Shown here piece after piece: positions 1,503-57,683 of a DNA stretch of 64,000 nt. Where the stretch lies: positions 5,580,001-5,644,000 of the forward strand of contig NC_081396.1 in assembly GCF_030684315.1 (NCBI RefSeq), in the 5' to 3' direction. The translations under genes were made by a program, and so were the position numbers. The notes beneath the pieces are model-generated. The model worked only from the letters and a program-made list of their open reading frames with translations. It ran no database searches and was not told the origin of the DNA. Source of the stretch: Stegostoma tigrinum (lineage: Eukaryota). Position 1 is the stretch's first letter, and each line of letters begins with the position of its first letter.

Positions 1503-2001
1503 ATGTCAGCTGTTACATTTTATACATTAACCACAGCTGCGGTTCTCTTCGCTGGTAAGTTCATTAAGTCGCAAAACATTGACTTGTACATGCCATTTAC
1601 GTAGTGAACTCACCTGCATAATGTTCACTTATCTTGATGACATTATCGAACAAAACGATAATTTCAGACTCAGATTGATTTTATGTTTAATTTTCTGTAG
1701 ATGTGAATTCGATCTCACAGCAGCCAGCTACAGCAAAACAGCTTGAAGGACTGTCGGTGAACATTAACTTTAGCTATTCGATGGAAACAGCTGTCTCATA
1801 TTCCTTACAATTGTACCGGCAAGACCTGAGTAAATCACCAACATTATTGCTCTACATCCTTCAATACGGAACCGTTCACAGATCTGACGGCGTGGGAAAT
1901 CGATTTTCTGCAGCTCTGGACACTTCGAAAAGTGAGGGGAATTTCACCATTGGTGACCTACGACTGTCTGACAGCGCTGTGTATTACTGCGTGTTGAGAG
2001 A
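1503..2001 (+). CDS. TCR alpha/delta V segment, open frame, non-canonical (no Cys23, no Trp41); leader 1503-1554, V exon 1701-2001
   Basis: Leader MSAVTFYTLTTAAVLFA|gtaagt, acceptor ttttctgtag, phase-1 splice. DVNSISQQ...NINFSYS...LQLYRQ...LSDSAVYYCVLRD with no stops. Confidence 0.9.
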
Positions 2002-2040
2002 CACAGTAACAGGAACCAGAGGGAACCTCGAGCAAAAACA
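2002..2040 (+). promoter_or_regulatory. 23-RSS
   Basis: cacagta + 23 bp + gcaaaaaca. Confidence 0.9.
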
Positions 2041-4207: not shown

Positions 4208-4617
4208 AGTGTGTTTGTTAAGTCTTAGTCATCAATGCATAGTACCTCACTTCTCACACGGTCAATATTAGCAGAAAATCGAGGGTCCACACCCTTAGCT
4301 CTGATAACAGCTCCATAGTTAGAAATGCAGATCAAAAAGGTTGCAATTTGTCCCAATACTGACGATGAAGTTGCAAACAATTTGCAGCAGCTGTGATCGA
4401 ATAACTGTAACTAATGGCCAATCTACTCTTTTTTCAAACCTCATCTATGAAACCGGCTCCTGGGAGACAGATTTTGCTCCACCAACACTTTCAGAAATTT
4501 AAAGCACCAAATTTCATTCTGTTATCATCATGTGAAAGTACTTAATATCATCAGGCAACTGAACATTTACGAAATAAGGAGAAAGCGGATTTGAAACGAT
4601 AACATTGGTGACTGCAT
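4208..4617 (-). pseudogene. Inverted V pseudogene related to the Cys23/Trp41-less family
   Basis: Leader MQSPMLSFQIRFLLI|gtaaat. Exon pieces AKSVSQEP..AISYSYSITAAANCLQLHRQ..ISNYGAVIRAKGVDPRFSANIDRVRSE. The YYC end is lost. Confidence 0.75.
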
Positions 4618-9299: not shown

Positions 9300-9574
9300 C
9301 ACACTGCAATACCTTCTGGCCTCCTAGGCCACAATTGCTTCGATACAAATAATGTTGGACTTCTTCACTCGGTCAGAGAACAGGTGCACTGTGTCCTGTC
9401 TATTGATTGCCTTTGCATACGGAGTCAATAAATTTTGGAGCTCCTGACAGTGTTTCTCTGTGCCAATCTATCGTATCTGCAGAACCATGGGTCAGGTTAT
9501 AATACAATTCAGCCTGCACCCTTCCAGAGACAGCATCTAGTCATACCGTGGGCTCTGATCAACACACTGAACTA
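9300..9574 (-). pseudogene. Inverted V pseudogene exon
   Basis: ttacag acceptor, then VQCVDQSPRYD*...CRLNC...TIDWHRETLSGAPKFIDS... with stops and frameshifts. Confidence 0.65.
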
Positions 9575-10760
9575 CTGTAACAAAAGAAACCACATTCAAA
9601 CATCACAAGGTATTGAAGAATAGGTAAAAGAAGGCGACTGATCAGAATAACACACAATGCCAAGAAAATTCGAGCTCCAAATTGCAAAAAGAGATTGCGA
9701 GACATTTTGTTCATGAGAATGAAGGGGGAGAGAACATTAATCATTCAGTCTGTTGATTCCAAACCAGGATTCGCTGTTGATACCAGGGCTTTCAATGATG
9801 GCAATGGAGGACCTCTGGGGAGAGCTTTGCATGTCCCTCATCGAGAAACACTGTTGGGCGATATTCTAAACAACAGATGATTAAAGAATGTTATTAACAA
9901 GCATCACTTACTTTCACAGTCAGGGATTGGATGCCTCAAAACATGGGCCGCTTCAAACCAGAAGACAAAGGAATTGCCTTGACTGTCTGCGTCTATTCGT
10001 CTCCAGCCCTCTCTCCCTCTCTCTGAATCTCCCTCTAGCCCTTCACTCTCACCTTGCAGCACTGGGTTAAATATTACATGAAGATTTGTTATTGGCCTTG
10101 TAACAACTGAAATTATTATTTGACATCATTAGTTGTTTTTTTCTCTCAATCTTTGTCTCAGTATTCCAAAATCATTGCTTGCTTTATCTTTAACTAACAT
10201 CTGCCTGATATTCTCGTTCCCTGCATGACTAGTTTAATTTTAGGGTGCTGTCTCTATGACCTTTGATCATTATTGTTTCATAGGTTTTCTACAAACCTAA
10301 ATAACGTTTATGGATCAACTTTCCAAATGATTTCAAAGTGAAATGTCTACATGTTTTTGTCACCGCCTGATGGTGGATTCTGGATTGTGTTTGTTCAACC
10401 TAGTCAAACGATTTGTTCACTCCCACGATTATTTATCCAATCTTCATTGCCATGTATTTTACTGCAGCAAGACTTCTATTTCAAGCAACGATAGTTTCGC
10501 CAGAGCAGATGAGATTGAGACAAAGAGCAGAGACAAAGCGATGTTGGGACAGTCAGAGAAATAATCGGAGGAACGTCAATAACTGCTTTGAATTGTTGCG
10601 TCGTTGCCATCAACACTGACGGAACAGCAAACTGAGCCTCAGGCAAACTCCCTACCTTCTCAGGCAGTGAAGTCGGATCATGATTTGCTTTACACTTTCA
10701 TATCAGAACGAGAAGGCCCAACATTCTGTTACTTTTCTGGTCATCTATAAACAAGACACC

Positions 10761-12395: not shown

Positions 12396-12700
12396 TCAAC
12401 ACAGTTTTAACTCAGCTCTGAATTTACTCTGGTTTCCAACATTATTAAAATGGTTGATACAGGAACTCATAAACAGCAGCCAGTAGCCACTTTCCTGTTC
12501 AATGATCTCTGACTGACTTAGGTTGAAACCTGAGAAATCAGGTACGTTCATAGTTTGCGAATGGAATGTTGCTATGAAAAATAAAGAATATAATAGAATG
12601 AAGCTGCCTGAGATGGCAAAGAGGAAAGCCATCGACGTTTTACTCTTTTCCATTCCCAGACATCTCTGATTTTCTCCACTGGTCTGAGTTGGACACTCCT
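12396..12700 (-). pseudogene. GPR139-like class A GPCR pseudogene fragment (TM6-TM7), displaced
   Basis: GENQRCLGMEKSKTSMAFLFAISGSFILL...QESGYWLLFMSSCIN...QSKFRAELK resembles the shark GPR139-like family motifs RKSIILLFAISGSFILLW and TQSKFREELK (recalled, not searched). Confidence 0.75.
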
Positions 12701-12703
12701 CCA

Positions 12704-13870
12704 ATTATTTCTCTGCCTGTCTCAACATTGACTTGTCTCTTCTCTTTGTCTCAATCTTGTCTGCTCTGGCGAAACTATCATTGCTTGTAATAGAATTCTT
12801 GCTGCAGTAAAATACAGGGCAATGAAGATTGGATAAATAATCGTGGGAGTGAACAAATCGTTTGACAAAGTTGAATAAACACAATCCAGAATCCACCCGC
12901 AGGCAGTGACAAAAACATGGAGAGATTTCACTTTGACATCACTTTGAAAGTTGATCCATCAACGTTATTTACGTTTGTATAAAATCTCTGAAACAATAAT
13001 GATCAACGGTCATAGCGACAGCGCCATAAAATTAAACTAATCATGCAGGGAATGCGAATATCAGGCAGACATGAGAGAAAGATAAAGCACGCAATGGTTT
13101 CTGAATTCTGAGACAAAGATTGAGGGAAATAAAGCAAGTAATGACGTCAAATAATAATTTCAGTTGTAACAAGGCCAATAACAAGTCTTCATGCAGTATT
13201 TAACCCAGTGCTGCAAGGTGAAAGTGAAGGGCGAGGGGGAGATACAGAGAGAGGGAGAGAGGGCTGGAGACGAATAGACACACACAGTCAAGGCAATTCC
13301 TTTGCTTTCTGGTTTGAAGCGGCCCGTGTTTTGAGACAGCCAATCCCTGACTGTGAAAATAAATGATGCTTGTTAATAACATTCTTTAATAATCTGTTGT
13401 TGAGAATATCACCAAACAGTGTTTCTCTATGAGGGACATGCAAAGCTCTCCCCTTAGCTCATCCATCGCCATCAGTGAAAGCCCTGGTTTCAACAACGAA
13501 TCCTGGTTTGGGATCAACAGACTGAATGATTAATGTTCTCTCCCACTTCATTCCCCTGAACAAAAAGTCTTGCAATCTCTTTTTGCCATTTGGGGCCCGA
13601 ATTCTCTTGACATTGTGGATTAATTATTCTGATCAGTCACCTTGTTTCACTTATTCTTGTACACCTTGTGATATTTGAATGTGGTTCCCTTAGCTGCAGC
13701 AGTTCAGTGCGTTGATCAGAGCCCACGGTATGACTAGATACTCTCTCTGGAAGGGTACGGGCTGAACTGCATTGTAACCTGTCTCATGGTACTGTGGATA
13801 CGATAGATTGGCACAGAAAAACACTGTCAGGGGCTCTAACATTTAATGACTCCATATGCAAGGGCAATAA
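12704..13870. repeat. Inverted duplication of ~9405-10565
   Basis: Paralogous ORF pairs on opposite strands: 9888+ vs 13200-, 10343+ vs 12705-. Includes a partial V relic at 13700-13870 (+). Confidence 0.9.
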
Positions 13871-13899
13871 AATGTCACGACACAGAATGTTCTCCTCCC

Positions 13900-19306: not shown

Positions 19307-19767
19307 ATGGGACTCGTGCTTATCTTCACACTCTGTGCCTATTTACACCGTAAGTAGAGATCAAGCAACATAACATTGCGGGCAGTTTGTATGAATCTCC
19401 TGTGTCCATTAAAACAGCAGGCGTTGTGTTTGGTCCAGGTCACTTAAAGCCCATTAATGTATCACTCTTTAATTTTCAGGATCTTTCAGTCAGTCAGTGG
19501 TACAGACACCGCCAACGGTAGCCACGAAAGAGTGCCAGTCTCTCATCATCAACTGTGTTTTCTACGGTGGCTTCTTCCGTCGTCCTTTAACTGAAGGGAC
19601 TTTCTTCAAACAACGCCAGGCTGGATCAGAGTGGGAGCGGCTCTCGGCAGGGGGGAGATTTAATGTGAGGATAAATAAAGCAGAAAAGACATTTTCGCTG
19701 GAAATTCAGGATGTGAAAGTTGAAGACACCGCCACCTATTATTGCAAAGCAGAGTACGAATACAACA
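19307..19767 (+). CDS. NAR-TCR V segment (IgNAR-like), apparently functional; leader 19307-19349, V exon 19480-19767
   Basis: MGLVLIFTLCAYLH|gtaagt. SQSVVQTPPTVATKECQSLIINCVF...SEWERLSAGGRFNVRINKAEKTFSLEIQDVKVEDTATYYCKA: no CDR2, VNAR-like FR3, extra FR1 Cys. Confidence 0.95.
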
Positions 19768-26043: not shown

Positions 26044-26353
26044 ATTCCCCTTCACTGGTGTCCCGCAGTCCGGCTGTACAAAGCTCTGTAACCGGAGACA
26101 CTGTTACTTTAAGCTGTGAATATTCAGGATTCTGTCAGTACACAGTTTCCTGGTACAGGCAGTCCCCAGAAGAGGGTCTGAAATATTTGCTTCAGAGCTA
26201 CACATCAGGAGATCAGAATAAAGAAAGTGCAGCTGGAGGCAGAATTTCTGCTGCTGTTGACTCCTCGACAAAAATCAGTCGATTAAAAATCTCCACAATA
26301 CAACTGAGTGACTCTGCTGTTTATTACTGTGCACTGGGTCGGCGCTCAGCACA
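26044..26353 (+). CDS. Leaderless supporting TCR-delta V (STCR-delta V) of the NAR-TCR
   Basis: ccacag acceptor in phase 1 with the J donor at 20599. DSPSLVSRSP...LSCEYSGFCQYTVSWYRQ...LSDSAVYYCALGRRSA. Extra CDR1 Cys; no upstream leader exon seen. Confidence 0.93.
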
Positions 26354-26392
26354 CACAGTGATCGAGAACATGGTCAGAGCAGTACAAAAACA
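26354..26392 (+). promoter_or_regulatory. 23-RSS of supporting V-delta
   Basis: cacagtg + 23 bp + acaaaaaca. Confidence 0.95.
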
Positions 26393-26790
26393 GAATGGGA
26401 ATTGCATACCAAATGATACAGAACATGGACACAGCTATGAAAACACATGAACATACTGGCGATTATGGCATAGTAATTCAGAGCACAGACAGAGCCGTAC
26501 AAAAACCTGAACAGAATGGGAATTAGAGATAAAATGATACAGAGCATGGAGGCAGCAGGACAAACACATGAATACATTGGCGATTACAACCCGGTAATGC
26601 AGAGCACGGAGAGAGCTGCACAAATACCTGAACAGAATGGGAATTGCAGGCAACATTATGCAGGACACGCACAGAATTGTATAAAACTATGAACACACTC
26701 GAAAGAGCCATACAAAAACCTTCACGGACTAAAGATTACAGATACGGCAAAGCAGAGAGCAGCGAGAGCAGTACGAAAAAAGAATGTGTG
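26393..26790 (+). repeat. Tandem array (~60-bp period) of degenerate 23-RSS copies
   Basis: Nonamer-like motifs at 26439, 26499, 26560, 26620, 26681, 26712 and 26773, each preceded by sequence resembling the true RSS spacer. Confidence 0.85.
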
Positions 26791-39062: not shown

Positions 39063-39539
39063 ATGTGCTCCTGGCTTCTTTTCTCATATGAACAGTTCAC
39101 ATATCCAGTGAGACTCAATCAAAATTATCATTCTGTGTTTCACTGGTTACATTTCGTTGCATACCTTTGACACATTGTCCTAATTTATTATAGAAGAAAA
39201 TGGTCAAGATTCTTTTTCGCACGAATTGCCTGAATGATTCTTTCAGAAAGGACAAACCAATGTATTAAATTGCAGTGAAACGGCAAACTACAGTGTACCA
39301 AGTTCCTTCTGATACATCCAGTGCCACAAGAAATCTCTGAAATATTTATTGAGGAAATTCGACTTGGAACATATTGATAGGTCTCCACACCTCTCAGATC
39401 GGTTTTCTACTAATTTGGATGAAGAAGAGAAAATGTTTCCTGTAAAAGTCAACTGTGCTCTTGTATCTGACTCTGAAATTCTTGACTGTGCGTTCGACTT
39501 CACATGTAATTAGAGGCATAATCAGCCTTTACAAAAATC
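39063..39539 (+). pseudogene. TCR V pseudogene with 23-RSS (paralog of 211-683)
   Basis: Stops shared with copy 1; cacatgt (39501) + 23 bp + acaaaaatc. Confidence 0.8.
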
Positions 39540-40401
39540 CGCAGGGCACTCTCACCTCCCTTCTTTGAATCAGGTGTGTGATGTATATTGTTCATTGGTG
39601 CCATCATCAAAAACCAACAGAAGTAGGGTATACATTCTTTCGAGTCTGCTCCGCCATACAATTTCACTGATCCTCTATCTCAGTGCCATATTCCCACTTT
39701 CCATTGTCAGATTTTGATGTTTTTAATATCCACAAATATCAATCTCGGGATTGAATTTACTCAATGACCTGGCCACAACTGTGCAAAGAATGGATTCTCA
39801 AAAGCATTTCATTCTGGTGTTTCGAATATGTCTCATTCTAAATGAAATATTCTCACTGCAATTTTTGTTCATAACCACTGGGCAGGTATGTTCATCGAAG
39901 ACTCTGGCACAGAAACAATAGCATTCAGTGTTATCCCTCACTGAAACTGATCAGAGGTTAACCTTGTTAAAGAGCCAAATCTGAATTTATCAGTATGTAT
40001 ATCAGGGAAAACCTTGTACTGTTCTTCACTTTGCTTCTCACGGATCGAGAATAACGTATCTAAACGGATTTGTGAATAATGCAGGAAGTTGCATGTGAGG
40101 CATATCATCAATTATTTCATTGAATAGAGCGGCAGTTTTGAAGGGTCAGGTGACTCCCCCCAGCTCCAGTTCTGTGTTCTTGCGTACAAATCTCTGCCGT
40201 AACCGACTAGAGAACAAGTAGTCTGCGAGCAGATTGGGTGTCTACGGGTGACTTCGACGAATAAACTAAACAGCAGTGATGTTAGATATGGCTCAACATC
40301 GGCTCTAATAACACAACTTCAGTTCCGCCTGTGGAATCACGCTGTCAGCATTCAGCTGGAACAATTTCGCTTTGTTCAAATCCACTATCTGTTCTAAAAA
40401 C

Positions 40402-40909
40402 ATGTCAGCTGTTACATTTTATGCATTAACCACAGCTGCAGTTCTCTTCACTGGTAATTTCACGAAGTCGCAAAACATTGACTTGTACATGCCATTTACG
40501 TAGTGAATTCACTTGCAAAATGTTTTCTTATCTTCATGACATTATTGAACAAAACGGTAATTTCATGCTCAGTTTGATTTTCTGTTTAATTTTCTGTAGA
40601 TGTGAATTGTGCAGATTCGATCTCACAGCAGCCAGCTACAGCAAAACAGCTTGAAGGACTGTCGGTGAACATTAACTTTAGCTATTCGATCGAAACAGCT
40701 GTCTCATATTCCTTACAATTGTACCGGCAAGACCTGGGTAAATCACCAACATTATTGCTCTATATCCTTCAATACGGAACCGTTCACAGATCTGATGGCG
40801 TGGGAAATCGATTTTCTGCAGCTCTGGACACTTCAAAAAGTGAGGGGAGTTTCACCATTGGTGACCTACGACTGTCTGACAGCGCTGTGTATTACTGCGT
40901 GCTGAGAGA
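40402..40909 (+). CDS. Non-canonical TCR V (no Cys23/Trp41), copy 2; leader 40402-40453, V exon 40600-40909
   Basis: Intact leader, GT/AG and open frame DVNCADSISQQ...YYCVLRD. Confidence 0.9.
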
Positions 40910-40948
40910 CACAGTAACGGGAACCAGAGGGAGCCTCGTGCAAAAACA
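40910..40948 (+). promoter_or_regulatory. 23-RSS
   Basis: cacagta + 23 bp + gcaaaaaca. Confidence 0.9.
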
Positions 40949-43107: not shown

Positions 43108-43520
43108 AGTGTGTTTGTTAAGTCCGAGTAATCAATGTACATCCACTCACTTCTCACACGGTCAATATTCGTAGAAAATTGAGGCTCCACACCCTTCGCA
43201 CTGATAACAGCTCCATAGTTTAAAATGTACATCAAGAAGGTCGCAATCTTGTACAGATACTGGCAATGATGTTGCAAACAATTTGCAGTGGCTGTGATCG
43301 AATAACAGTAACTAATGGCCACTGCACTTTTTCTCATACCTCGTCTCTGAAACTGGCTCCTGGGAGACAGATTTTGCACCAACAACACTTGCAGAAATTT
43401 AAAGCATGAAAATTTCATTCTGTTATCATCATGCTACAGTATTTAATAACATCTGGCAGCTGAACATTTACGGAATGGGGAGAACGCACATTTAAAACGA
43501 TATCATTGATGACTGCACAT
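43108..43520 (-). pseudogene. Inverted V pseudogene (paralog of 4208-4617)
   Basis: AVAISYCYSITATANCLQHHCQ..FLMYILNYGAVISAKGVEPQFSTNIDRVRSE. Confidence 0.75.
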
Positions 43521-57188: not shown

Positions 57189-57683
57189 ATGAAACTCGTT
57201 CTTATCTTCACACTGTATGCCTATTTGCACCGTAAGTAGAAATCAAGCAATATAACATTGTGGGCATTTTGCATAAAACTCCCCGTGTCCATTAAAACAG
57301 CAGGCGTTGTGTCTGGCCCAGGTCATGTAAAACCCATTCATGTATCTCTCTTTAATTTCCAGGATCTTTCAGTCAGTCAGTGGTACAGACACCGCCAACG
57401 GTAGCCACGAAAGAGTGCCAGTCTCTCATCATTGACTGTGTTTTCTATGGTGGCTTCTACCGTCGTCCTTTAACTGAAGGGACTTTCTTCAAACAACACC
57501 AGACTGGATCATAGTGGGAGCGGCTCTCGGCAGGGAGGAGGTTTAATGTGAGGATAAATAAAACAGAAAAGACATTTTCGCTGGAAATTCAGGATGTGAA
57601 GGTTGAAGACACCGCCAGCTATTATTGCAAAGCATAGTTACAGCACACAATGATGGGGATCAGCTTCCCGTAACACAAAAAAT
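57189..57683 (+). pseudogene. NAR-TCR V pseudogene with 22-RSS (leader 57189-57231, exon 57363-57645)
   Basis: Paralog of the 19307 V with in-frame TAG at 57512 and 57635; cacaatg-22-acaaaaaat intact. Confidence 0.92.

Follow-up and report, generated by a model that had tools for sequence, protein, structure and literature searches.

A T cell receptor V domain is normally held together by a disulfide between Cys23 and Cys104 packed against Trp41, and a V gene that lacks two of these three residues raises the question of whether it is a relic or encodes a working chain. Two such genes lie in the window analysed here, a stretch of 64,000 nucleotides of the Stegostoma tigrinum genome (contig C55, positions 5580001-5644000). 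We put a probability of roughly 80% on the reading that they are germline V genes of the TRAV10 family that likely join J-alpha and give diverse alpha chains, with a domain predicted to fold without the disulfide. The observation is real, and the family is selected and likely functional, the protein-level part being a prediction drawn from sequence and structure models.

Most of the window consists of two copies of a block of ~39 kb, ~85% identical to each other, and each block contains a V gene (copies A and B) in which a leader of 52 nt is followed by a GT..AG intron of 146 nt, a V exon with an open frame and, 3' of it, a 23-spacer RSS (Table 1). As the initial annotation had it, both genes encode Phe23 and Leu41 and retain Cys104, which by sequence is left unpaired, and their leaders, splice sites, frames and 23-RSSs were confirmed. 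Both match the Pfam V-set profile (PF07686) above its cut-off, and the RSS departs from the consensus by one letter in the heptamer and two in the nonamer. The frames are indeed intact, but an in-frame 9-nt deletion in copy A had been overlooked; it lies near position 1707, at the 5' end of the V exon, removes C-A-D from the end of the signal peptide and may impair signal cleavage. The mature V domain has a single cysteine, a second one being encoded in the predicted signal peptide and lost from copy A with this deletion. The decamer AGTGATGTTA, described earlier as a CRE-like element that both copies keep, is shared by A and B but altered in both sister copies outside the window, while a separate CRE-like element, TGACGTAA, is present in one sister copy, has similar counterparts in two distant paralogs and is damaged in copy B. 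Just 5' of each copy lies a decayed V pseudogene with a 23-RSS (340-684 and 39250-39495), the two being ~15% divergent and serving as a neutral control. Elsewhere in the window, positions 9389-10572 and 12697-13885 form a pair of ~1.2-kb inverted repeats of 88% identity, probably copies of a mobile element.

Table 1. Positions within the window of the two V genes and of neighbouring features.
Feature	Position	Strand	Remark
Copy A, leader exon	1503-1554	+	
Copy A, leader intron	1555-1700	+	GT..AG; excised in a ~90% alike contig of run X2
Copy A, V exon	1701-2001	+	TRAV10.2-like; open frame
Copy A, core codons	Phe23 1769-1771; Leu41 1811-1813; Phe89 1943-1945; Cys104 1988-1990	+	
Copy A, 23-spacer RSS	2002-2040	+	CACAGTA-23-GCAAAAACA
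Copy B, leader exon	40402-40453	+	
Copy B, V exon	40600-40909	+	open frame
Copy B, core codons	Phe23 40677-40679; Leu41 40719-40721; Phe89 40851-40853; Cys104 40896-40898	+	
Copy B, 23-spacer RSS	40910-40948	+	
Decamer-like element AGTGATGTTA	1378-1387 (copy A); 40275-40284 (copy B)	+	common to A and B only
Putative CRE-like promoter element TGACGTAA	1298-1305	+	damaged in copy B
Gene-conversion tract between A and B	1578-1795	.	minimum extent; A groups with B at 10 informative sites in a row
Inverted truncated pseudogene, TRAV10.1-like	4246-4471	-	Tyr23
Inverted truncated pseudogene, same TRAV10-type family	43146-43364	-	Tyr23
NAR-TCR V, cassette A	19491-19766	+	neighbour; open frame
Supporting V-delta, cassette A	26058-26336	+	neighbour
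NAR-TCR V, cassette B	57374-57643	+	neighbour; two stop codons

The replaced residues are a property of a family. At least eight open-frame members, 58-99% identical to copy A and all with leader and splice sites, are present in the genome together with at least two members with stops and at least three inverted fragments; the searches scored the best 150 candidates, so that these counts are lower bounds. Phe23 and a CAC heptamer are found in seven of the eight. The remaining member (C55:5420856; L008:1501-1785), the paralog closest to nurse shark V10.1, combines Cys23 with Leu41 and a heptamer that begins CGC, and sequence comparison makes its cysteine a likely reversion because two related inverted fragments and the nurse shark counterpart have Tyr23. 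Two proteins of the bamboo shark Chiloscyllium punctatum carry Phe23 with Leu41 or Val41 and fall with the eight genome members into a single clade (support 100/98). Across these ten rows Trp41 is absent throughout, Cys23 is absent from nine and Cys104 is always kept; Cys and Trp occupy columns 23 and 41 in all 53 other V domains aligned. Two further positions set the family apart, with Phe89 in 10/10 family rows versus 2/53 other domains and Ile21 in 10/10 versus 6/53. The 200 proteins screened gave 390 V-domain matches, of which eight have neither residue in the respective columns: the two bamboo shark proteins and six that were rejected as family members because they look shifted or broken. 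A single-sequence homolog search gave no match and a longer-protein search gave 13, all at most 39% identical; the nearest matches from Callorhinchus and Latimeria retain Cys23 and Trp41. Among the 60 matches listed, a sequence search of the PDB returned antibody V domains only, and the Atlas search returned TCR V clusters.

Evidence that such genes are used comes from the nurse shark, where the family corresponds to TRAV10 (V10.1 and V10.2) of Ott et al. 2018, numbered after Criscitiello 2010 (PMC5931798). Starting from a leader primer given in that paper, we took every V10-labelled row of the source data behind its Table 1 (n=45). By hand count V10.2 and copy B differ at 30/280 nucleotides and 20/93 residues (~89% and 78% identity), and the 250/280 nucleotides and 73/93 residues that are identical place copy B within TRAV10 under the nurse shark family rule (at least 70% nucleotide and 75% amino acid identity; PMC5931798). 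Neither Cys23 nor Trp41 occurs in any of the 45 alpha-chain cDNA clones, which read Tyr23/Leu41/Phe89 in 43 of 43 V10.1 sequences and Phe23/Phe41 in both V10.2 sequences (PMC5931798). Nurse shark TRAV10 thus shares with the window copies the two losses, Phe89 and an S-L-Q-L/F-Y motif, and differs from them in the Tyr23 of V10.1 and in the Phe41 and damaged appearance of the V10.2 clones (PMC5931798). Among the 45 clones are 27 unique CDR3-J combinations, all on C-alpha, and two V10 clonal groups with somatic mutations belong to the sequences that the paper describes as in frame (PMC5931798); as some clones stem from family-specific primers, 45/539 is not a usage figure. The family, on the strength of these relatives, is transcribed and diverse. 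The idea of an invariant-type receptor, raised in the initial annotation, finds no support in the 27 different junctions, and the fixed V-J pairing or near-fixed CDR3 of iNKT- or MAIT-like receptors is not found in the nurse shark family. Rearrangement and transcription of these relatives in T cell tissues of the nurse shark make it likely that the family gives a working alpha chain. A term search of the main text of PMC5931798 found no mention of the missing residues; germline layout and selection are not described in that paper.

Two sequencing runs, X1 and X2, were guessed to be RNA, and their contigs indicate presence only. In X2 a contig ~90% alike has the leader spliced to V across the intron, and a second reads I-H-F-K-Y-S (Phe23) ahead of the S-L-Q-L-Y motif; in the closest contigs codon 23 falls in a zone without listed differences. 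Among the contigs of the two runs neither a V-J junction of this V nor a rearranged transcript of copies A and B themselves was seen.

Comparison of copies A and B bears out the earlier count of seven V-exon substitutions, four of them synonymous (7/301, with three replacements), against 3/52 in the leader, 15/146 (10%) in the intron, 57/300 (19%) in the 300 nt upstream and 11-15% in the 3' flank. For this pair alone the excess of synonymous change is weak (4/70 versus 3/215, P 0.064); distant family pairs reach P ~1e-4. In 27 of the 28 pairs among the eight genome members dN/dS lies between 0.26 and 0.52, mostly 0.3-0.4, with dS up to ~1, the outlier being copy A and the copy at C55:5657738 (0.83-0.87). 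In a simulation of neutral decay at flank rates, all four cassette copies stayed intact with a chance of only ~1e-4. By these sequence measures the family is under purifying selection, and the central proposal of the initial annotation, a V family kept by selection while lacking the canonical disulfide and Trp41, is upheld by dN/dS of ~0.35 out to dS ~1, by the bamboo shark relatives and by the rearranged nurse shark cDNAs.

Part of the likeness between A and B has another source. When four copies are compared, counts of informative sites delimit a gene-conversion tract (Table 1), outside which A groups with B at 6/65 informative sites; in the flanks A pairs with the copy at 5657738. Over the intron and the exon's 5' half, both of which the tract takes in, A-B identity is inflated by conversion. 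High identity across intron and flanks had been named beforehand as grounds for abandoning the proposal, and over the tract it is indeed found; the 3' half of the exon, however, lies outside the tract, follows the flank grouping and is conserved too (5/171 differences). In these cassettes the paired NAR V genes and the paired supporting V-delta genes likewise diverge by only ~5%, which means that the TRAV10-type gene does not stand out as frozen; the flanks are more divergent, as claimed, but what had appeared to be unusual conservation can be put down to ordinary selection on a V gene together with a conversion tract.

These observations bear on an alternative in which the family as a whole functions but the Phe23 copies in the cassettes are silent or in decay, their frames held open by recent duplication and conversion. 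The tract fits such a history, as do the one pair with dN/dS near 0.85, RSSs one to three letters from consensus, the deletion in copy A and a dead NAR V in cassette B that is likewise just 5.2% divergent. Both nurse shark V10.2 clones also look damaged, with altered YRQ and AVYYC motifs and, in one clone, no Cys104, and the abundant clones belong to the Tyr23 subfamily, the subfamily closest to the window copies being represented by these two. We nevertheless regard this alternative as unlikely: all four copies are intact, the 3' half of the exon sits on the flank tree yet differs at 5/171 positions versus 10-15% in the flanks, and Phe23/Leu41 members at dS 0.5-0.9 are intact both in this genome and in the bamboo shark.

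The setting of the genes among NAR-TCR cassettes suggests another role. Over 464 kb mapped, four of six NAR V cassettes (C55:5.53-5.78 Mb) are preceded by a family copy, alongside canonical V types and pseudogenes, and three other members lie 28-50 kb from a NAR V, as would suit a V that serves as a special partner of NAR-TCR or marks an invariant T cell type. This is very improbable. Two of the six cassettes have no family copy, and two intact members lie over 200 kb away from the nearest NAR V match; at least 11 NAR-TCR V matches (three with stops) are scattered over C55:1.69-5.78 Mb. Canonical V types share the block, copy B has outlived its NAR V, and the nurse shark junctions are diverse and all on C-alpha. 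Co-duplication with the NAR-TCR cassette, claimed earlier, is borne out, but there is no sign that the two act together, and a functional tie is not supported; the family seems to have hitch-hiked when the block was duplicated in tandem. On this view the four near-identical copies travelled with a block that carries NAR-TCR as well, A and B probably being homogenised further by gene conversion.

The NAR V pair had been put at about 12 differences in ~270 nt; we count 14/270, and the gene next to copy B carries two stops. That gene is nonetheless only 5.2% divergent from its cassette A counterpart, well under the flanks, which points to recent death or conversion. NAR-TCR supporting V-delta genes are not known to have a leader of their own. 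They share with the TRAV10-type copies the duplicated block and a 23-RSS and differ in keeping Cys23 and Trp41, in an extra CDR1 cysteine and in belonging to a different clade; copies A and B neither directly follow a NAR V-D-J nor have the canonical core or the extra cysteine. Repeated 23-RSS units, tandem heptamer-nonamer pairs ~60-115 nt apart, occur 3' of the supporting V-delta genes (26354-26660 in the window, and C55:5784197-5784320). At C55:5578401 and 5654140, copies of a canonical V type resembling nurse shark V1 retain open frames but have no CAC heptamer, which the copy at 5514704 does have.

For the TRAV10-type V to serve as an alpha chain it has to reach J-alpha, which lies with C-alpha on the same contig, on the opposite strand and ~4.7 Mb from the window copies. 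C-alpha is near C55:844 kb and the J array spans 850-961 kb, all on the minus strand (87 raw J-like matches, some redundant). The V genes found at C55:0.97-5.8 Mb mostly have the plus orientation, and inversion over up to ~5 Mb would be needed for most joins. From this opposition of plus-strand V and minus-strand J and C-alpha, we infer that the window genes would join across the ~4.7 Mb by inversion.

The AlphaFold model of the domain adopts a V-set fold (pLDDT 94.9; TM-score 0.76-0.89 to antibody V domains), a confidence that leans on an alignment including 53 canonical V domains, since with the eight family members alone pLDDT is 55. The V domain is accordingly a predicted, model-based case of folding without the Cys23-Cys104 disulfide. 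Phe-Leu-Phe at positions 23, 41 and 89 is close in residue volume to Cys-Trp-Leu, which fits a repacked core. The core may have been repacked once, in the family ancestor, through substitution of Cys23 by Phe or Tyr, of Trp41 by Leu, of Leu89 by Phe and of Leu21 by Ile; the two added aromatic rings would then occupy the room of the lost tryptophan and disulfide, leaving Cys104 buried and free. Cys104 is kept in 10/10 rows though its usual partner is gone, and it might instead pair with a cysteine from the junction or from the partner chain, in which case the domain would not be disulfide-free. This is very unlikely: the mature V has this one cysteine (the other, in the predicted signal peptide, being deleted in copy A), J segments at consensus heptamers show none, and the Ig fold buries position 104.

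Loss of Cys23 in V genes that are used is already known. Salmonid and teleost TRAV1 has an aromatic residue in its place (Tyr in salmonids), is classed as functional and productive, and joins 72/118 J segments with no strong restriction (PMC8559430). Like the shark family it is a TRAV subgroup with an aromatic residue at position 23 (PMC8559430); the account reports no further structural particularity, which implies that Trp41 is kept there, whereas the shark family has lost it in 10/10 rows. What sets the shark family apart from TRAV1 is the added loss of Trp41 together with Phe89. Fifteen similar domains with Tyr or Phe23 and Trp41 among our matches have Leu or Met at 89, and the best tree parts the shark family from them, with a single clade not rejected (AU p 0.455; 45/196 canonical rows sampled). 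The VH of antibody ABPC48 also works without its disulfide, a Tyr filling the core, but this is a single antibody that has lost the second cysteine, not a germline multigene family (PMC6201861). Among the papers listed by the literature search none describes a shark V without Cys23 and Trp41, and the shark residue losses go unremarked in the text covered of PMC5931798, PMC8559430, PMC12227049, PMC10641266 and PMC6201861, a provisional result. We judge the chances about even that this is an undescribed disulfide-free scaffold: a multigene V family with a Phe/Tyr23-Leu41-Phe89 core in place of Cys-Cys-Trp, thymically selected, hypermutating and kept across several shark families.

The TRAV10-family finding does not indicate a new receptor class. 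It bears on how antibody and TCR domains without disulfides might be designed for intracellular use, and on how V genes are annotated. The IMGT rule for a 'functional' gene requires Cys23 and Trp41 (PMC8559430), so that the window copies, with Phe23 and Leu41, rank as 'ORF' genes although leader, splice sites, frame, 23-RSS, Cys104 and V-set fold are all present. With Cys23, Trp41 and Cys104 used as the test of functionality, annotation would discard a family whose relatives are rearranged, transcribed and selected. The joint loss of Trp41 and the matching change of Leu89 to Phe suggest that these sharks hold a second natural way to pack the Ig core.
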